Of a stretch of 42,780 bases of DNA, positions 2,816 through 42,780 are shown piece after piece. The translations under genes and the position numbers were made by a program. The stretch lies in the sequence record NC_019706.1; one strand, given 5' to 3'. Under the pieces are notes generated by a model. It ran no database searches and was not told the origin of the DNA. It saw only the letters and a list, made by a program, of their open reading frames with translations. The DNA comes from Enterobacteria phage mEp043 c-1. The first letter of the stretch is position 1. Every line of letters starts with the position of its first letter.

Positions 2816-4311
2816 GTTTTTTAGATGATGCGATAGGCCTGTTTTCACCAGGCTGGAAAGCCTCACGCCTGCGTGCCCGCGCAGTTATTAAGGCGTATGA
2901 GGCGGTAAAGCAAACGCGTACCCACAAAGCCCAGAAGGAAAATCGTTCAGCCGATCAGCTCAGCCAGATGGGGGCGGTTTCACTGAGGCAGCAGGCGCGC
3001 TGGCTGGACAACAACCACGATCTGGTGATTGGCGTTTTCGACAAGCTGGAAGAAAGGGTGGTGGGTGCGAAGGGCATCATAGTTGAACCGCATCCGATGC
3101 TGACTAACGGGAAGATAGCTAAAAAGCTGGCCACTGACATCCGCAGAAAGTGGGGCGAATGGTCCGTAAGACCCGATGTTACAACCCAGTTTACCCGCCC
3201 CATGCTGGAGCGGCTGATGCTGCGAACGTGGCTCCGGGACGGTGAGGTATTTGCTCAGCTGGTTCGCGGTACCGGAAATGGTCTTCAGCCGGTTGCTGGC
3301 GTGCCGTTCTGGCTGGAAGCGCTGGAGCCGGACTTCGTGCCGATGAACAGCGATGCCGCCACCCAGCTCAATCAGGGCGTTTTTGTCGATAACTGGGGGC
3401 GCCCGAAAAAATATCAGGTCTATAAAAGCCTGCCAGTATCCGGGCGTCAGTTCGATACCAAAGAGATAGATGCAGAAAACATGCTGCATCTCAAATTCAC
3501 ACGACGCCTGCACCAGACCCGCGGAACGTCTCTATTGTCAGGTGTTCTGATGCGTCTGAGCGCGCTGAAAGAGTACGAGGACTCGGAGCTTACTGCTGCC
3601 AGAATTGCTGCGGCACTCGGCATGTATATCAAAAAAGGCGACGGACAGAGCTTCGATTCTGATTCAAGCAGCGATGACCGCGAGCTGATGATTCAGCCCG
3701 GTATGCTCTATGACGAACTGCAGGCCGGGGAAGAAATCGGGATGATTAAATCCGATCGCCCGAACCCTAACCTCGAATCTTTTCGTAACGGACAGCTGCG
3801 TGCCGTGTCCGCCGGCAGTCGCCTCAGCTTTTCCAGCACATCCAGAAACTACAACGGAACGTACAGTGCCCAGCGGCAGGAGCTTGTCGAGTCAACCGAC
3901 GGATATCTGATTCTTCAGGACTGGTTCATCGGTTCAGTGACCCGGCCCATGTACCGGGCCTGGCTGAAGATGGCTATTGCTGCCGGAGAAATCAAGCTGC
4001 CGAGAGGCATCGATATGGACTCGCTTTATAACGCGGTTTATTCGGGGCCCGTTATGCCGTGGATTGATCCCGTTAAAGAAGCGAATGCCTGGAAAACGCA
4101 GATCCGCGGCGGTGCTGCTACTGAATCCGACTGGATACGTGCCAGCGGTCGCAACCCGGATGATGTTAAGTCACGCCGTAAAGCGGAGGTTGACGAGAAC
4201 CGTGAACAGGGACTGGTGTTTGACACCGACCCCGCCAATGATAAAGGAGGCACCAGTGCCGAAGCCAAAGAACCGGGCGCGCCACCGTCCGAAAGCCAGC
4301 GCAAAAAGTAA
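2812..4311 (+). CDS. Portal protein (gpB-like)
   Basis: 499-aa ORF following terminase and W in conserved head-gene order; acidic C-terminal tail. Confidence 0.85.
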   Translation: MSFLDDAIGLFSPGWKASRLRARAVIKAYEAVKQTRTHKAQKENRSADQLSQMGAVSLRQQARWLDNNHDLVIGVFDKLEERVVGAKGIIVEPHPMLTNGKIAKKLATDIRRKWGEWSVRPDVTTQFTRPMLERLMLRTWLRDGEVFAQLVRGTGNGLQPVAGVPFWLEALEPDFVPMNSDAATQLNQGVFVDNWGRPKKYQVYKSLPVSGRQFDTKEIDAENMLHLKFTRRLHQTRGTSLLSGVLMRLSALKEYEDSELTAARIAAALGMYIKKGDGQSFDSDSSSDDRELMIQPGMLYDELQAGEEIGMIKSDRPNPNLESFRNGQLRAVSAGSRLSFSSTSRNYNGTYSAQRQELVESTDGYLILQDWFIGSVTRPMYRAWLKMAIAAGEIKLPRGIDMDSLYNAVYSGPVMPWIDPVKEANAWKTQIRGGAATESDWIRASGRNPDDVKSRRKAEVDENREQGLVFDTDPANDKGGTSAEAKEPGAPPSESQRKK

Positions 4312-15165: not shown

Positions 15166-15206
15166 GCCTGTGGCCACTAACTTAAAGGTGCTTCGGCACT
15201 TTTTTT

Positions 15207-18200
15207 ATGGGTGAAAAAATGCAGCTTCTTAAACAAGAAACCATCCTGCAGGGTGCCAAAGGGGGAGGTGGCAGTTCACATACTCCTGTTGAGCAGCCTG
15301 ACGATCTGTTGTCGGTCGCAAAATTAAAAATGCTCATTGCCGTTTCTGAGGGGGAAATACAGGGCGACCTGACCGCTCAGAATATTTTTCTCAACGATAC
15401 GCCGCTGGCAAACGACAGCGGGGAATACAACTTCAGCGGCGTGAAATGGGAGTTCCGCAAGGGCACACAGGACCAGACCTATATTGCCGGGATGCCCCAG
15501 GTCGACAACGAGCTGGCCGTGGGCACAACTGTCACCACCACCGCGCCCTGGACGCGCCAGTTTACAAACCTTTCCCTGGATGCCATCCGTATCAAGCTCA
15601 GCCTTCCGGTCCAGTATCTCTATAAAGATAATGGCGATATGGTGGGCACGGTCACCGAGTATGCGATCGATTTATCAACGGACGGCGGCGCCTGGAAAAC
15701 GGTTGTAAACGGCAAGTTTGACGGAAAGACCAAGACGGAATATCAGCGTGACCACCGTATCGATCTGCCAAAATCCACGTCCGGCTGGTCTGTCAGGGTC
15801 AGGCGTATTACGGCTGATGCCAGCGGATCAAATTCGAAACTGGTTAACGCCTTCAAGGTGTTTTCGTATGCGGAAGTCATCGACAGCAAGCTTCGTTATC
15901 CTTTAACAGCGCTCCTGTATGTCGAAGTGGACAGCAGCCAATTCAACGGCAGCGCGCCGAAAGTGACCTGTAAGATAAAAGGCAAGCTGATTAAGGTTCC
16001 GGATAATTACGATCCGAAAACCCGAACCTATTCTGGTTCATGGTCCGGCGGGTTCAAAATGGCATGGTCCAATAACCCTGCCTGGATCTTTTACGATCTG
16101 GTTCTGGATGAAATTTACGGCATGGGCACGCGCGTGGATGCGTCCATGGTGGATAAGTGGGCGCTGTATTCAATCGCCCAGTACTGTGACGAAATGGTTT
16201 CCGACGGGGCCGGTGGCACCGAACCGCGTTTCACCTGCAACGTTTTCATTCAGAGCCAGGAGGACGCCTGGCAGGTACTTAACGATCTCGCCGCGGTATT
16301 TCGTGGAATAACGTTCTGGGGCAACGATCAGATTTATGTCCAGGCAGACGTCCCGCAGGACGATGTTGACTGGGTTTATAACGTCTCAAACGTTATCGAT
16401 GGGCTGTTTACTTATGCGGGCGGCTCATACAAGAATCGCTACAGCTCCTGCCTGGTGTCCTGGTCCGATCCGCAGAATCATTACAGCGATACCGTTGAGG
16501 GGGTCTACGATTCGGCGCTGGTAGAGCGTTACGACGTCCGGCAGACGTCCCTGACCGCAATCGGCTGCACCTCGCAAAGTGAAGCGCACCGGCGCGGTCG
16601 CTGGGTATTACTCTCCAATGCCAAAGACGGCACCGTATCGTTTGGCGTGGGGTTGGACGGTTATATCCCTTTGCCCGCTGAAATTATCGGTGTCGCCGAT
16701 CCTTTCCGTTCTGGTAAGGAGAACGGGGGCCGCATAAGCGCGGTCAACGGCCGCCAGATTACCCTTGATCGAGAAATAGACTACGCGGCGAAAGACCGGC
16801 TGGTGGTTAACCTTCCCGACGGAAAAGCCCAGACGCGGACAATCAGCGCGGTGAGCGCCGATAAAAAAACGGTGACGGTGGCTACGGCATTCAGTCAGGT
16901 TCCTGTGGCTGGCGCTGTCTGGGCGATAGACAGTGATAACCTCGCAATACAGTACTTCAGGGTCACCTCAATCGCGGCTAACGACGACAGCACAGGCGGT
17001 TTCACTATTACGGCCGTTCAGCACGATCCAAACAAATATCGTTACATCGATGACGGCGTTCGGGTCGAGTCTCCCCCGATCACCGTCACGCCGATAAGCG
17101 TCCTGTCTGCTCCGAAGAATATCGTGGTGACTGAGAGCGATCATGTGTCTCAGGGGCTGACTGTAGCAAGCCTGGACGTGTCATGGGATAAGGTAGAGGG
17201 CGCAATCCGGTATGTTGCCCAGTGGCGTAAGGACAACGGGGACTGGATAAACGTTCCGGTTACCAGCGCGCAGGGTTTCTCGGTTCAGGGCATTTATTCG
17301 GGCAGCTATGACGTGCGCGTACGGGCACTGAATGCGCAGGATACGTCGTCACCATGGGGATACGGTGAAACAACTTATCTCTCCGGTAAAACGGGAAAAC
17401 CGGGTACTCCGCTCAACTTCCTGGCGACCGAAGATGTGGTCTGGCATATCGACCTGACATGGAAATTTCCGGATGGCTCAGGCGACACGGCCTATACAGA
17501 GATTCAGCGCGCCACAACTGCCGACTACGCCAATCCTGAACTGCTGGTCCTGGTGCCGTACCCGGCTGCAGATTATCAGCATGGCCCCATGCCTGCCGGC
17601 GTTCGCCAGTGGTACCGCGCGCGCCTGATTGACCGTATCGGTAACGCCGGGGACTGGACCGACTGGATCATGGGCACGTCCTCGATAGATGTCAGCGAAA
17701 TAACCAATGACATTCTGGAGGATATGAAAGAGTCGGAAACGTTCAAAGACCTGATCGAGAACGCGGTGGACAGCAACGAAAAAATTGCTGGCATGGCTAA
17801 CGATATCAAACAGGCTAACGACGAACTGGAGCAGCAAGCGAAAGATATCGCCAAAAATGCCCAGGACGTAGGGAAGGTTCAGACCAGCGTTAATGAGCTT
17901 TCCAGCACGGTCGGGAATGTTTCGTCTTCACTCAGTCAGCTTGAGCAGACCGTTGCGACGGCTGATACCGCCCTGGGCCAGCGAATCGACAACATCAGCG
18001 TTTCTATGGACGGCATGACGGGCGGGGTGAAGAACTCTGCAATTGCGATAATCCAGGCCAACCTCGCTCAGGTGGCCACGCGTAAAACCCTTTCTGCATC
18101 GGTCGCCGGCAACAGCGCGAATCTGGACCGTATTGATGAGGTGATTGTCAACGACAGGGAGGCAACGGCGCGCTCGCTGCTGAGCCTGCAGACGGACGTT

Positions 18201-18887
18201 AACGGCAACAAGGCATCCATAAACAGCCTGAATCAGACGTTCTCCGACTATCAGCAGGCAACGGCGCGCTCGCTGCTGAGCCTGCAGACGGACGTTAACG
18301 GCAACAAGGCATCCATAAACAGCCTGAATCAGACGTTCTCCGACTATCAGCAGGCAACGGCCACGCAGATAAACGGCATCACGGCGACCGTGAACGGGCA
18401 TACCTCAGCCATCACCACTAATGCTCAGGCGATAGCCAACGTTAATGGCGACCTCAGCGCGATGTATAACATCAAGGTTGGCGTAACCAGTAACGGGCAG
18501 TATTACGCTGCCGGGATGGGGATTGGGGTTCAGAATACACCCTCCGGCATGCAGTCACAGGTAATATTCCTGGCCGACCGATTTGCTGTTACCACTGCTG
18601 CCGGAAACAGCGTGGCGTTACCATTTGTGATCCAGAATGGTCAGACGTTCATCAGGGCCAGCTTCATTCAGGACGGTACCATTGAGAACGCCAAAATCGG
18701 TAACTATATCCAGTCGAATAACTATGTGGCTGGCTCTGCAGGCTGGAAACTTGATAAGGGGGGCACCTGGGAAAACTGCGGCAGCGACGGTCAGGGAGCA
18801 AGAAAATCCACCAATGTCACTGACAGTATCAGGGATTCAAATGGCGTGCTCCGCGTGCAAATCGGCAAACTTACAGGGGTGTTTTGA
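15207..18887 (+). CDS. J: Tail tip / host specificity protein J
   Basis: 1226-aa ORF; N-terminal and central regions resemble recalled lambda gpJ; C-terminal region divergent. Confidence 0.9.
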   Translation: MGEKMQLLKQETILQGAKGGGGSSHTPVEQPDDLLSVAKLKMLIAVSEGEIQGDLTAQNIFLNDTPLANDSGEYNFSGVKWEFRKGTQDQTYIAGMPQVDNELAVGTTVTTTAPWTRQFTNLSLDAIRIKLSLPVQYLYKDNGDMVGTVTEYAIDLSTDGGAWKTVVNGKFDGKTKTEYQRDHRIDLPKSTSGWSVRVRRITADASGSNSKLVNAFKVFSYAEVIDSKLRYPLTALLYVEVDSSQFNGSAPKVTCKIKGKLIKVPDNYDPKTRTYSGSWSGGFKMAWSNNPAWIFYDLVLDEIYGMGTRVDASMVDKWALYSIAQYCDEMVSDGAGGTEPRFTCNVFIQSQEDAWQVLNDLAAVFRGITFWGNDQIYVQADVPQDDVDWVYNVSNVIDGLFTYAGGSYKNRYSSCLVSWSDPQNHYSDTVEGVYDSALVERYDVRQTSLTAIGCTSQSEAHRRGRWVLLSNAKDGTVSFGVGLDGYIPLPAEIIGVADPFRSGKENGGRISAVNGRQITLDREIDYAAKDRLVVNLPDGKAQTRTISAVSADKKTVTVATAFSQVPVAGAVWAIDSDNLAIQYFRVTSIAANDDSTGGFTITAVQHDPNKYRYIDDGVRVESPPITVTPISVLSAPKNIVVTESDHVSQGLTVASLDVSWDKVEGAIRYVAQWRKDNGDWINVPVTSAQGFSVQGIYSGSYDVRVRALNAQDTSSPWGYGETTYLSGKTGKPGTPLNFLATEDVVWHIDLTWKFPDGSGDTAYTEIQRATTADYANPELLVLVPYPAADYQHGPMPAGVRQWYRARLIDRIGNAGDWTDWIMGTSSIDVSEITNDILEDMKESETFKDLIENAVDSNEKIAGMANDIKQANDELEQQAKDIAKNAQDVGKVQTSVNELSSTVGNVSSSLSQLEQTVATADTALGQRIDNISVSMDGMTGGVKNSAIAIIQANLAQVATRKTLSASVAGNSANLDRIDEVIVNDREATARSLLSLQTDVNGNKASINSLNQTFSDYQQATARSLLSLQTDVNGNKASINSLNQTFSDYQQATATQINGITATVNGHTSAITTNAQAIANVNGDLSAMYNIKVGVTSNGQYYAAGMGIGVQNTPSGMQSQVIFLADRFAVTTAAGNSVALPFVIQNGQTFIRASFIQDGTIENAKIGNYIQSNNYVAGSAGWKLDKGGTWENCGSDGQGARKSTNVTDSIRDSNGVLRVQIGKLTGVF
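18162..18353 (+). repeat. Perfect in-frame 96-bp tandem duplication (2 copies) within J
   Basis: 18162-18257 and 18258-18353 are identical, encoding ATARSLLSLQTDVNGNKASINSLNQTFSDYQQ twice; the next 8 nt also match before divergence. Confidence 0.95.
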
Positions 18888-39964: not shown

Positions 39965-40288
39965 ATGAAGATGCCAGAAAAACATGACCTGTTAGCCGCC
40001 ATTCTCGCGGCAAAGGAACAAGGCATCGGGGCAATCCTTGCGTTTGCAATGGCGTACCTTCGCGGCAGATATAATGGCGGTGCGTTTACAAAAACAGTAA
40101 TCGACGCAACGATGTGCGCCATTATCGCCTGGTTCATTCGTGACCTTCTCGACTTCGCCGGACTAAGTAGCAATCTCGCTTATATAACGAGCGTGTTCAT
40201 CGGCTACATCGGTACTGACTCGATTGGTTCGCTTATCAAACGCTTCGCTGCTAAAAAAGCCGGAGTAGAAGATGGTGGAAATCAATAA
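39965..40288 (+). CDS. S: Holin S (dual-start holin/antiholin)
   Basis: 107 aa; appears identical to recalled lambda S except the penultimate residue; starts ATG-AAG-ATG giving Met1 and Met3. Confidence 0.95.
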
Positions 40289-40748
40289 TCAACGTAAGGC
40301 GTTCCTCGATATGCTGGCGTGGTCAGAGGGAACTGATAACGGACGTCAGAAAACCAGAAATCATGGTTATGACGTCATTGTAGGAGGAGAGCTATTCACT
40401 GATTACTCCGATCACCCTCGCAAACTTGTCACGCTAAACCCCAAACTCAAATCAACAGCCGCCGGACGTTACCAGCTTCTTTCCCGTTGGTGGGATGCCT
40501 ACCGTAAGCAGCTTGGCCTGAAAGACTTCTCTCCGAAAAGCCAGGACGCTGTGGCACTGCAACAGATTAAAGAGCGTGGCGCTTTACCGATGATTGATCG
40601 CGGTGATATCCGTCAGGCAATCGACCGTTGCAGCAATATCTGGGCTTCGTTGCCCGGGGCTGGTTATGGACAGTTCGAGCATAAGGCTGACAGCCTGATT
40701 GCAAAATTCAAAGAAGCAGGCGGAACGGTCAGAGAGATTGAGGTATGA
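40272..40748 (+). CDS. R: Endolysin R (lytic transglycosylase)
   Basis: 158 aa; near-identical to recalled lambda R. Confidence 0.95.
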
Positions 40749-41182
40749 GCAGAGTAACCGCGATTATCTCCGCTCTGGTTATCTGCATCATCGTCAGCCT
40801 GTCATGGGCGGTTAATCATTACCGTGATAACGCCATTACCTATAAAGAACAGCGCGATAAGGCCGCATTCATTATCGCTGACATGCAGAAACGTCAACGC
40901 AATGTAGCAGAACTCGACGCCAGATATACAAAGGAGCTTGCTGATGCTAACGCGACTATCGAAAGTCTCCGTGCTGATGTTTCTGCTGGTCGTAAGCGCA
41001 TGCAAGTCGCCGCCACCTGTGCAAAGTCAACGACCGGAGCCAGCAGCATGGGCGATGGAGAAAGCCCAAGACTTACAGCAGATGCTGAACTCAATTATTA
41101 CCGTCTACGAAGTGGAATCGACAGGATAACCGCGCAGGTTAACTACCTGCAGGAGTACATCAGGACGCAATGCCTTCGATGA
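40745..41182 (+). CDS. Rz: Spanin inner-membrane subunit Rz
   Basis: 145 aa; N-terminal about 35 aa match recalled lambda Rz ([33 protein letters not shown]), rest divergent. Confidence 0.9.
40938..41129 (+). CDS. Rz1: Spanin outer-membrane lipoprotein Rz1 (embedded in Rz, +1 frame)
   Basis: 63-aa ORF inside Rz; hydrophobic N-terminus with lipobox VSAC followed by a Pro-rich segment; exact start uncertain. Confidence 0.7.
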
Positions 41183-41475: not shown

Positions 41476-41634
41476 ATGACACTTGAAGAACGAATTACAG
41501 CTTTAGAAAAGGCAGTCACATGCATTGTGAATGAAAAGCAAGAGGACACAACTGCCTTTGTTGATAAAATTATTCAGGAGATGCGTCAGTCCTCAGTATT
41601 TTCGCAGCTTCTAGAAAGGCCTCGTGAAGATTAG
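41476..41634 (+). CDS. Small hypothetical protein (52 aa)
   Basis: ATG with AGGAG RBS at 6-nt spacing; 3' end overlaps the convergent minus-strand ORF by 65 nt. Confidence 0.4.
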   Translation: MTLEERITALEKAVTCIVNEKQEDTTAFVDKIIQEMRQSSVFSQLLERPRED

Positions 41635-41830
41635 GGATGTTTTTAACACGTTCAGGATCAAGTTTTTCCTGGACAAATTTTGTCAACCCATCATATAAAT
41701 CTTTGTTCGGGTACAGCTCATTAACTGCTTTAATTAGTGCTCCAAAAGCAAGCTGATTTGCTATTTTTTGTACGGCTAATTCTTTTTCTAACTGCTCAAC
41801 CTTTTCTTTTAAACCAAAACCTTCTGACAT
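41570..41830 (-). CDS. Hypothetical protein (86 aa)
   Basis: ATG with AAGGAA RBS at 6-nt spacing; convergent with and overlapping 41476-41634. Confidence 0.5.
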   Translation of the reverse strand: MSEGFGLKEKVEQLEKELAVQKIANQLAFGALIKAVNELYPNKDLYDGLTKFVQEKLDPERVKNIPNLHEAFLEAAKILRTDASPE

Positions 41831-41959
41831 TTTTGATTCCTTATTCTGAGGTAATCAGCCATTACTCTTTATTAAGTGCGCCAGTGTCCCACCACCGACG
41901 GGCTGAATGCCTACATTAACCAGGGTTAAGACGAAACAACACCCTGATATTCAAACAGT

Positions 41960-41982
41960 AGCCGCCATCACGCGGCTTTTTT
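41960..41982 (+). terminator. Rho-independent terminator
   Basis: GCCGC-CATCAC-GCGGC hairpin followed by T6. Confidence 0.55.
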
Positions 41983-42022
41983 ATGCGCATCGCACGCGCA
42001 CATCGTAGAAAGTCTTTCAGCT

Positions 42023-42076
42023 GTGAGCCTGGGCAAACCGTTAACTTTCGGCGGCTTTGCCGTGCGACAGGCTCAC
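42023..42076 (+). promoter_or_regulatory. Long imperfect hairpin in the leader of the cos-proximal gene
   Basis: GTGAGCCTG-GGCAAA-CCG...CGG-C-TTTGCC-GTGCGA-CAGGCTCAC; about 18 paired bases with a 6-nt bulge; ends 20 nt before the ATG at 42096. Confidence 0.3.
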
Positions 42077-42095
42077 GCCTAAAAGGAAATAAATC

Positions 42096-42563
42096 ATGGG
42101 TCATAAAATTATCACGTTGTCCGGCGCGGCGACGGATGTTCTGTATGCGCTGTTTTTCCGTGGCGCGCTTCAGTCTGGTGATCTGCCAGCCAAATCTGGT
42201 GCTGCTGAGCTTCTAGAGCTGGGATTCGCTGAAACACGCCATACCGCGACGGAGTATCAAAAGGAAAATTATTACACCTTCCTGACCGCTGAAGGGCAGG
42301 AGTTCGCCATTAAGCACCTGGTGAATACGCGCTTTGGTGTTCCTGCTGGTGGTTATATTGGTGGCTCTGTAAATATTCAGTTTGGCCGGATAGAGAACGA
42401 CCCACGAAAAGGCTATGCCATCAATGTTGGCATCTGTCCCGAAATTAAGACCGGCGTGAAGCTATCCCCTGAAATGGTAAAAGCGATCTCAGATGTTGTG
42501 TCCGAGGAACTGAAGAAGAGTCTTCGGCCAGGTGGCACGATATGGTCAGCGCTGTCGCGATGA
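42096..42563 (+). CDS. Hypothetical protein (155 aa), cos-proximal
   Basis: ATG with AAGGAA RBS; last gene before the cos site; no motif recognised. Confidence 0.6.
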   Translation: MGHKIITLSGAATDVLYALFFRGALQSGDLPAKSGAAELLELGFAETRHTATEYQKENYYTFLTAEGQEFAIKHLVNTRFGVPAGGYIGGSVNIQFGRIENDPRKGYAINVGICPEIKTGVKLSPEMVKAISDVVSEELKKSLRPGGTIWSALSR

Positions 42564-42663
42564 ATGGACGTTTAGACGTCCAAATTGGTGCGAATCAAGT
42601 CGCATTCACGCAAATGATAATCATTATCATTTGCGGGTCCTCCCGGCAGGGTGGCCTGCCACG

Positions 42664-42675
42664 GGGCGGCGCGCT
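42664..42675 (+). other. cosN-like cohesive-end site
   Basis: GGGCGGCGCGCT flanked by ACG and CGCGGG, differing at 2 positions from recalled lambda cosN (GGGCGGCGACCT); upstream ATGATAATCATTATCA matches recalled lambda cosQ region. Confidence 0.7.
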
Positions 42676-42780
42676 CGCGGGAAACGGCTAGTTTTTCGGA
42701 TCCAGGGTCATCATCATCAAGTGCGCAGGTCTTTGATTTAATTAGAGGCCATTTTCGCAAGATGTCGAATCGTTCAAAAA

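Follow-up and report, generated by a model that had tools for sequence, protein, structure and literature searches.

A pseudoknotted leader RNA ahead of the last gene of phage mEp043 c-1: very probably a family of its own, and a candidate translational gate

What is a long, imperfect hairpin doing between a terminator and the last gene of a lambdoid phage? The question arises at the right end of Enterobacteria phage mEp043 c-1 (record NC_019706.1; the window, in what follows, is the whole stretch of 42,780 nucleotides (nt) that was analysed, one strand, 5′ to 3′). There, at 41960-42563, a terminator-like site is followed by a hairpin and then by an open reading frame (ORF) for a protein of 155 amino acids (aa), and the first-pass annotation, which worked from the letters alone, had taken the ensemble for an independently regulated moron, its hairpin acting as an RNA switch, a processing site or a palindromic operator. 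The view that we reach agrees with this in part. The hairpin is part of a leader RNA which, we are confident, represents a previously unrecognised, widespread family with a pseudoknotted fold; that this leader works as a portable translational gate for the accessory genes of late operons, by controlling access to the Shine-Dalgarno (SD) sequence, is the reading of its role that we regard as rather probable.

The terminator, the hairpin at 42023-42076 and the 155-aa ORF lie where they had been placed, scan, minimum free energy (MFE) fold and ORF call being in agreement. The structured element is larger than that hairpin, here termed P2: it adds a second hairpin (P1), a pseudoknot and a basal helix (P0) that covers the SD. 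The features are these.

41960-41983, plus strand: predicted intrinsic terminator (scan match), stem 41960-41977 and U-tract 41978-41983; variable in sequence, a frequent upstream partner of the leader
41984-42095, plus strand: whole conserved leader RNA, from P1 through the SD to the base before the ATG; near-identical beside unrelated flanks
41984-42000, plus strand: P1, small hairpin UGCGC-AUCGCAC-GCGCA (MFE fold, compensatory changes)
42008-42013, plus strand: 5′ strand of the pseudoknot, GAAAGU, pairing with 42044-42049 (register-free test)
42014-42020, plus strand: 5′ strand of P0, CUUUCAG, pairing with 42079-42085 (MFE fold)
42023-42076, plus strand: P2, long bulged hairpin (fold z = -2.9; inner-stem covariation)
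42044-42049, plus strand: 3′ strand of the pseudoknot, ACUUUC, in the apical loop of P2 (register-free linker/loop test)
42079-42087, plus strand: 3′ strand of P0, CUAAAAG (42079-42085), overlapping the SD, AAGGA (42083-42087) (fold)
42096-42563, plus strand: cargo gene, 155 aa, with a putative N-terminal winged-helix-like domain (ORF call)

In the predicted MFE structure, P2 has an energy of -30.3 kcal/mol and a single one of 200 shuffles is equally good. Its outer stem joins 42023-31 to 42068-76 and its inner stem 42032-40 to 42052-61, with C42055 bulged; a 6-nt bulge, GUGCGA (42062-67), separates the stems on the 3′ side, and the apical loop covers 42041-51. Counted in base pairs (bp), the window-type helix amounts to 9+6+3 bp plus P0, the breaks being a 2x2 loop, one mismatch and the 6-nt bulge. 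P0 lengthens P2 at its base, and 19 nt lead from the 3′ end of P2 to the ATG at 42096. Our covariance model, R1, matches 41978-42092 with 134.6 bits on the plus strand, the sole plus-strand copy in the window; on the minus strand it gives 21.6 bits. Rfam 15, searched over the whole window at gathering thresholds, returned no match, and at E <= 10 on 41800-42780 it returned chance-level matches of 12-18 bits, none of which spans the entire leader. Nor did the literature, searched both by topic and with strings of the sequence, yield an account of the element, which is not proof of absence.

How far, then, does this RNA extend beyond mEp043? The segment 41850-42780 (931 nt) is 100% identical to the mEp213/mEp043 right ends (megablast), and a block of about 115 nt within it (41974/41985 to 42090) is shared, at 94-97% identity, with phages that differ from mEp043 on both sides of the block. 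Positions 41985-42089 are 94-100% identical in HK639, mEp390, mEp237, phi80, AsXd-1, FSL SP-016, Fraca, LMessi and CharmingMan; in the alignment, conservation begins at GCGCATCGCAC and ends at AAAGGAA, just ahead of differing start codons, and the mosaic joints coincide with both edges of the block. Phage phi80 carries a pair of leaders (at 43640-43770 and 45234-45348), ORF x171.28 following one of them and rha the other, and a more sensitive search retrieved copies 70-80% identical in Klebsiella, Enterobacter and Elizabethkingia phage records. A degenerate pattern found at least 120 IMG/VR contigs and 50 species genomes, with genera that include Enterobacter, Citrobacter, Klebsiella, Buttiauxella, Kluyvera, Kosakonia, Pantoea, Erwinia, Serratia and Symbiopectobacterium; the titles of the matched genomes are nearly all from Enterobacterales, the exceptions being two titles of metagenome-assembled genomes, Cellvibrionaceae and Collinsella. 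Pattern matches and previously fetched loci together make up a set of 191 instances, 151 of them unique, with core lengths of 62, 63, 64, 65, 76, 77, 78 and 79 nt. BLAST detects the window-type leader in 122 of 5426 complete Escherichia coli genomes, many of which belong to laboratory strains with phi80, and a Rha-type leader in 149 phage records, 77 of which are Stx-converting; carriers of the latter include HK106, Sf101, epsilon34, SPN3UB and HK620, where it stands ahead of hkbK. The records of Aeromonas phage AsXd-1, Elizabethkingia phage EKP1 and Actinobacillus phage vB_Apl-pPE4 combine lambdoid lysis modules with leaders 80-98% identical to the E. coli/Enterobacter types, and their host assignments may deserve checking.

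Comparison of homologues, the analysis that the first-pass annotation had itself proposed, brings out a leader conserved and covarying as RNA. Among 93 representatives, 87% of the cells of the alignment are paired, a share that falls to 20-52% if partners are displaced by 1-3 columns, and the covariation score is 0.158 against 0.101 in shuffles, none of 500 of which reaches the observed value. P1 is a 5-bp stem with 91% of its cells paired and compensatory changes at three of the five pairs in the large alignment, while all five are compensated among 11 divergent members. In the inner stem of P2, where covariation is strong, a single pair appears as CG (38), GC (28), UG (13), AU (9), GU (2) and UA (2). 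The outer stem covaries only in members that were retrieved without the search pattern, and the pairs of P0 are kept in 83-93 of the 93 rows. The unpaired CUUUCAG and GUGCGA are highly conserved. As a control for retrieval bias we considered separately the members found by BLAST and R1 only (Stx2a phages, Providencia PSTCR7lys, Pantoea PA-1, SPN3UB): in these 11 true plus-strand sequences, two reverse-strand artefacts having been left out, 91% of the cells are paired and 13 of 29 pairs are compensated, pairs of P0 and of the outer stem included. The outer stem there reads UGACCCUUG/CAAGGUUCA in place of GUGAGCCUG/CAGGCUCAC, and P0 takes the compensated forms CUACAG/CUAUAG in the Providencia phage and CUUUCAG/CUGAAAG in Stx2a phages. 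In the Stx2a Rha leaders P0 and P2 merge into one continuous duplex of about 21 bp with the SD inside.

In the pseudoknot, the stretch of linker that immediately precedes CUUUCAG pairs with the 3′ portion of the apical loop of P2. A test free of any assumed register finds at least five contiguous Watson-Crick pairs between a leader's own linker and loop in 143 of 148 unique leaders; the mean number of contiguous pairs is 5.57 for own partners, 4.02 across types and 3.51 with shuffled loops. Linker and loop change together, yielding at least six different helix sequences: GAAAGU/ACUUUC in the window, CGAGAG/CUCUCG, CGAUA/UAUCG, CGAGACA/UGUCUCG, AAGAG/CUCUU and AGAGAG/CUCUCU elsewhere, and, in the divergent members, CCCCGAG/CUCGGGG, CCAAGAG/CUCUUGG and CACAGAA/UUCUGUG. 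The window-type loop UUAACUUU matches the T7 'epsilon' enhancer, and many E. coli-type linkers (ACAUCAAAGAAAG, where the window has ACAUCGUAGAAAG) are complementary to RybB; both likenesses are treated as coincidence because both segments vary or covary in other leader types.

The same comparisons bear on a coding role. A 77-codon ORF (41983-42216, plus strand, its AUG following the U-tract) and an antisense ORF of 62 codons (41916-42104, minus strand) cross the leader; core lengths and covariation speak against both, and a conserved reading frame is excluded because the core lengths include values that are not multiples of three. ORFs annotated as hypothetical proteins across the leader in other phages, namely PHI80_65 (phi80 45229-45528, minus strand), LMessi CDS0062 and CharmingMan CDS0005, are probably artefacts of the structured RNA.

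What ties this RNA to translation is its position. The start codon lies 17-21 nt past P2 in 185 of the 191 instances, and since the conserved block includes the SD, it is the leader that supplies the ribosome-binding site. By nested-structure thermodynamics, the SD 5-mer of 155 native leaders is predicted to be unpaired with a mean probability of 0.25, a value that rises to 0.51 on shuffling of the leader. Predicted energies are about -3 kcal/mol for P0 and about -4 kcal/mol for the pseudoknot duplex, the 5′ strands of the two are adjacent, and formation of the pseudoknot would require a 9-nt junction to be stretched along the roughly 18 bp of P2. Because the energies are similar, the 5′ strands abut and the junction must be stretched in this way, we infer that P0 and the pseudoknot compete, which would make of the leader a two-state gate. 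One may then picture a portable, cis-acting unit of about 110 nt, in which a ribosome-binding site and a structured translational gate would serve whatever accessory gene follows. It would be transcribed within the late operon, from no promoter of its own, by a terminator-resistant polymerase passing the intrinsic terminator upstream. The default P0+P2 fold would hold translation of the cargo low, and a switch would then free the SD, probably in that the pseudoknot forms or an RNase cuts the long helix in response to a host factor or signal. Near-identical between phages, the leaders may for that reason double as a homology patch for the exchange of cargo genes.

A number of observations weigh against this reading, or against its firmest form. 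The retrieval pattern fixed CTTTCAG, GAGCCTG and GACAGG.TCAC, so that the invariance of these strings in the large set is partly built in. P0 itself is nearly invariant, and its covariation depends on few divergent lineages (Providencia, Stx2a, Pantoea, SPN3UB); the strand asymmetry, 87 G-U against 62 A-C cells, is modest. Taken as a test of a switch, the strengths of P0 and of the pseudoknot are only weakly correlated, rho being 0.24 over sequences that are not independent and 0.17 (p = 0.21) over distinct combinations. P0 of the window type is weak (about -3 kcal/mol), and may tune translation rather than block it. Repression by P0, its mutual exclusion with the pseudoknot and a trigger of any kind are things that we infer. 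Finally, a simple SD-masking hairpin needs no pseudoknot, no conserved 6-nt bulge and no P1; these being superfluous for masking, the RNA probably does something more specific. Both halves of a riboswitch-like anatomy are there, a structured, covarying aptamer-type fold and a predicted expression platform that overlaps the SD. We may go as far as to suggest, very tentatively, that the leader is a host-state-sensing switch of a new class, be it a riboswitch or an RNA that responds to a host protein or RNase, and that temperate enterobacterial phages, Shiga-toxin phages among them, would share it as an exchangeable module to time the translation of antirepressor-type, nuclease and other late-operon accessory genes; the leader could, if so, be the site where host factors such as IHF affect rha.

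The transcriptional setting bears directly on the claim of independent regulation. The consensus scan shows a stem AGCCGC-CATCAC-GCGGCT at 41960-41977 (6 bp, five of them G-C) followed by TTTTTT at 41978-41983, and a single match of this kind is not above chance, since shuffles give 2.5 +/- 1.7 per region. It is meaningful because the comparative loci show a terminator at fixed spacing: of 162 unique homologous loci, 120 (74%) have a G+C hairpin with a T-run ahead of the leader, the distance from the end of the T-run to P1 being 2-3 nt in 93 loci and 14-17 nt in 22, with 72 different hairpin sequences. With the spacing fixed and the sequence so variable, it is therefore the presence of a terminator that is selected there, and not its sequence. 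A scan found no sigma-70-like promoter between 41983 and 42096 (other sigma factors or weak promoters being possible), manual inspection found no conserved -10 or -35 in the conserved block of any leader type, and the scan found no plus-strand terminator-like site in 42563-42780. Promoters that could be proposed by eye (TTTCAG-N19-TTAACT, TTGCCG-N17-TAAAAG, the U-tract TTTTAT as a -10, sigma-54 or sigma-E spacings) are off consensus and are not conserved across leader types. Elsewhere, the leader is found between tail-tube and tail-chaperone genes (HK639 and E. coli CX21; in HK639, the major tail gene with its terminator lies on one side and an unrelated gene for 226 aa on the other), one copy in Stx2a phages lies between R and Rz, and some copies directly follow an upstream stop codon, with no terminator. 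The leader is an intra-operon element, read by antitermination-competent late transcription, and not a self-contained moron, because copies follow stop codons directly or sit between R and Rz or between tail genes.

Of the roles proposed at the outset, a switch or a processing site are still live, the RNA being structured and covarying, while the operator has to be abandoned. An independently transcribed moron whose hairpin would be the operator or switch of its own promoter has in its favour the terminator upstream and a variable accessory gene at the classic moron position between lysis genes and cos. We hold it to be very unlikely: there is no promoter-like site in 41983-42096 or in the conserved block of any leader type, no terminator downstream of the gene, and some copies lie inside late operons or directly after a stop codon. 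As for the operator, the palindrome behaves as RNA and not as a dimer-binding site, its arms covarying as helices with G-U pairs while their spacing varies by 13-16 nt, the upstream linker covarying with the loop, and R1 separating the strands (134.6 against 21.6 bits). Still less credit can be given to a role in DNA only, that of a boundary or linker providing homology for lambdoid module swaps with no function as RNA. The mosaic joints fall exactly at both edges of the block and near-identical leaders stand beside unrelated cargo in distantly related phages, as this account would have it; however, diverged types keep their helices by compensation, linker-loop pairing is maintained with at least six different sequences, and neither the orientation nor the spacing to the start codon varies; recombination homology requires none of this. 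A role in recombination is best seen as a secondary consequence. Hardly to be entertained at all is the idea that the element is a self-cleaving ribozyme, or else an independent small RNA (sRNA) acting in trans, and merely adjoins the next gene. A compact pseudoknotted fold with conserved unpaired residues, right after a terminator, might evoke one, but no Rfam ribozyme or sRNA matches even at E <= 10, the conserved block runs on through the SD at a fixed distance from the start codon, and the RNA has neither its own promoter nor its own 3′ terminator.

Two further accounts are closer to the translational gate. The P0+P2 duplex might be a processing site at which RNase III, or some other endonuclease, would cut the polycistronic late transcript and so uncouple the cargo from the lysis mRNA; the new 3′ end of the latter would be shielded by the upstream terminator hairpin, and the cut would either activate translation by freeing the SD, as happens in the lambda N leader, or set off decay. 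This account overlaps the gate and could provide its trigger. Since RNase III sites call for about 20 bp or more of (quasi-)continuous duplex, it would be well served by the Stx2a-type leaders, with about 21 bp of continuous duplex plus a further 10 bp, by the 9+6+3 bp plus P0 of the window type, where the 3′-side bulge recalls the asymmetric internal loops of T7 R-sites, and by the stable hairpin immediately upstream in 74% of loci, which would protect the new 3′ end. Yet RNase III sites are usually conserved in shape and not in sequence and need neither pseudoknot nor P1, the single-stranded CUUUCAG and GUGCGA are highly conserved here, and the window-type helix is interrupted and short; we are inclined to doubt this account. 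Somewhat more doubtful appears to us a riboswitch-like or protein-binding sensor, in which the pseudoknot, the GUGCGA bulge and the CUUUCAG junction would bind an Enterobacterales-wide metabolite, ion or protein and so tilt the competition between P0 and pseudoknot, by which translation would be set. Translational riboswitches have just this anatomy, unpaired nucleotides that are conserved and a pseudoknot beside an SD-masking helix; with unrelated cargo the regulator cannot be the cargo product, phages differ in their regulators, which makes a host-side signal more likely, and according to the phi80 record the product of the leader-bearing rha gene inhibits DNA synthesis in IHF- hosts. Against this, the cargo lacks a metabolic theme in common, so that gene context points to no ligand or protein, Rfam contains no matching riboswitch, and the family is taxonomically narrow.

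Several identities were considered and set aside. The phi80 M3 RNA, the classic non-tRNA substrate of RNase P, was a candidate for a hairpin of about 55 nt; it is annotated at 36229-36288 (minus strand) as an oop homologue, away from the phi80 leaders. RfaH ops/JUMPstart elements, CRP half-sites, integron attC sites, the topology of hepatitis delta virus-like ribozymes and a k-turn at the bulge do not fit in sequence or in strand order.

The nearest functional precedent is the IsrK-orf45-anrP locus of the Salmonella prophage Gifsy-1, where a terminator is followed, on a read-through mRNA silent in translation, by a ribosome-binding site buried in structure, and where an antirepressor-like gene is thereby controlled in a manner related to the c4-icd-ant system of P1/P7 (PMC4825925). 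Here, too, a terminator precedes the leader of an accessory gene, the silence of which would be the shared property. The Gifsy-1 isrK gene differs in lying directly downstream of Q, in overlapping the C4 and a1b1 families, in having its own promoter and in acting through trans activation by a short sRNA; none of these traits was seen for the present leader family, which is unrelated in sequence and in location. An identity with IsrK/C4 was rejected: the true isrK of Gifsy-1 scores 79.3 bits, whereas the match in the window, at 41902-41982, scores 17.6 bits (E = 0.34) with a gathering score of 50, and R1 finds no match on the complete Gifsy-1 genome. That weakly isrK-like segment, made of a hairpin and the terminator just 5′ of the leader, is present only in mEp213/mEp043 and lies outside the conserved leader; on its 5′ side no promoter was noticed.

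Other phage and bacterial elements share one trait or another with the leader. In the lambda N leader and the T7 R-sites, a long, imperfect, bulged hairpin precedes the ribosome-binding site, and cleavage by RNase III alters translation while leaving a protective 3′ hairpin. The likeness lies in the imperfect hairpin itself, long and asymmetrically bulged, and in its place just 5′ of the ribosome-binding site in a phage polycistronic transcript; those elements differ in having no pseudoknot and little sequence conservation, and in not being common to unrelated cargo. The SAM-II, preQ1-II/III and guanidine-III riboswitches have a pseudoknot and conserved junction residues beside the helix that controls the SD, as does the present leader with the helix predicted to govern access to its SD. 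There is, however, no similarity in sequence or model, the loop here pairs with an upstream linker, the cargo is without common metabolic function, and members are confined to the late operons of temperate phages. In T4, free-standing and intron homing-endonuclease genes carry a hairpin that sequesters the ribosome-binding site and blocks read-through translation, with release by a late promoter inside the hairpin. These, too, are accessory genes in phage operons, and some of the present cargo are HNH endonucleases, but the T4 hairpins are gene-specific and form no conserved family, and the leader has no internal promoter. Morons such as lambda bor/lom and HK97 gp15 carry by definition their own promoter and downstream terminator. 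The leader-bearing genes resemble them as variable accessory genes among conserved late genes, often near terminators; they differ in that neither promoter nor downstream terminator was found here, the shared element being a 5′ leader RNA. The boundary or linker sequences proposed for lambdoid module exchange, and discussed in HK620, are short conserved blocks at mosaic joints, as is the leader, of which HK620 carries a Rha-type copy; here the block is under selection for RNA structure, beyond recombination homology.

The genes that follow the leader form 28 protein clusters. With 73 instances, the relatives of N15 gp59 and phi80 x171.28, among which the 155-aa product of the window falls, make up the largest; Rha accounts for 42 instances and glycosyltransferase for 12. 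The remainder includes proteins of antirepressor type (KilA-N, Bro-N, P22_AR_N and ANT) as well as HNH endonucleases and small ORFs. Different genes come after the same leader in mEp213, mEp237, phi80, HK639, mEp390 and others: in mEp390 and LMessi it stands ahead of a 485-aa glycosyltransferase, in AsXd-1, FSL SP-016, Fraca and CharmingMan ahead of different N15 gp59- or tail-tip-related proteins. Many of these products are regulators or nucleases, of which leaky expression in a lysogen would plausibly be harmful, and a terminator combined with a translational lock fits such cargo. Stx2a phages have two copies, as in the Stx2a-converting phage Stx2_EC3283 (locus L190): the first (1629-1763) stands ahead of an antirepressor gene of the P22_AR_N type that separates Rz from the endolysin gene, the second (2995-3130) ahead of a Rha gene just before the terminase genes, with a continuous P0+P2 duplex of about 21 bp over the SD. 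In mEp390 (locus L003, 2122-4116) and in loci L005, L007 and L008, the leader is followed by the 485-aa glycosyltransferase, of the GT2 type, and by further transferase genes, a cargo that might be a module for glycosylation of the virion or cell surface; the mEp390 record likens the gene after the glycosyltransferase to gp56 of mycobacteriophage Corndog.

The 155-aa protein itself, described at the outset as unrecognised, stays so in sequence databases: neither Pfam, NCBIfam nor the Protein Data Bank (PDB) gives a sequence match, a PDB profile search with the protein family gave nothing meaningful, and the PHROG families to which it belongs (16910, 17079 and 4365) are all of unknown function. 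The search did yield 458 homologues, in which a variable middle separates a conserved N-terminal portion (about 85 aa) from a ...PGGxIW motif at the C terminus; the middle is often a DUF1983/tail-tip module related to the J protein of mEp043, although the mEp043 version is without this module. A predicted winged-helix-like domain at about residues 10-75 is common to the N15 gp59 / phi80 ORF x171.28 family. The AlphaFold2 model has a mean confidence (pLDDT) of 62.6 overall and about 80 in the N-terminal domain, of topology H-b-H-b-b-H, and its best Foldseek matches are all winged helix-turn-helix proteins of the MarR/PadR/HxlR type, though weak ones (E = 5e-3 to 4e-2, TM 0.3-0.45). That the protein binds DNA is a reasonable guess. 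In the family members of HK639, FSL SP-016 and phi80, a segment is 43-45% identical to J residues ~1087-1151 (Pfam Phage_Tail_Tip/DUF1983); the J-like ORF, at 15186-18884, was compared with loci L001 (2623-3303) and L005 (2111-2884).

Were the gate confirmed, some of the best-studied temperate phages (phi80, HK620, HK639, epsilon34, Sf101 and the Stx1- and Stx2-converting phages) would turn out to carry a family of structured RNAs not described before, its members numbering in the hundreds. Genes of the Rha, KilA-N, Bro and Ant types, so far little understood in their regulation, would have a common post-transcriptional control point, which in Stx phages may influence induction, and a recurrent lambdoid mosaic joint would be explained as a functional, portable cassette of leader and ribosome-binding site. 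Annotation would improve with the removal of spurious ORFs such as the three named above, and a compact natural translational gate, suited to experimental dissection, would be at hand. The association of a leader with phi80 rha makes the long-standing IHF-rha phenotype directly testable.

It remains to place the locus in its genome. The genome is lambdoid, with S, R and Rz at 39965-41182, and two small ORFs on opposite strands lie between Rz and the terminator-like site. One, of 86 aa (41570-41830, minus strand), occupies a bor-like position between Rz and the leader; it is present only in the closest relatives and has no protein-family match. From there to the right end come the terminator-like site, the leader, the 155-aa ORF and the cohesive end, GGGCGGCGCGCT, at 42664-42675, a position obtained by alignment to position 1 of phage LLS, in whose record GGGCGGCGCGCT is annotated as the cos overhang. 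The 155-aa ORF is thus the final credible gene ahead of the cohesive end, as had been proposed, with a gap of about 100 nt to cos. Within that gap a perfect 13+13 palindrome, CGCAAATGATAAT-C-ATTATCATTTGCG, spans 42609-42635 (core 42613-42631); it reads as a near-perfect Fur box and may bind Fur, terminase or both. Its counterpart in phi80, ATTGATAATTATTATCATT at 46087-46105, lies within the annotated cosQ/R4 region. The palindrome probably accounts for the label 'Fur-regulated protein' given to the N15 gp59-like family (the phi80 'ORF x171' names), though the box is downstream of the gene.

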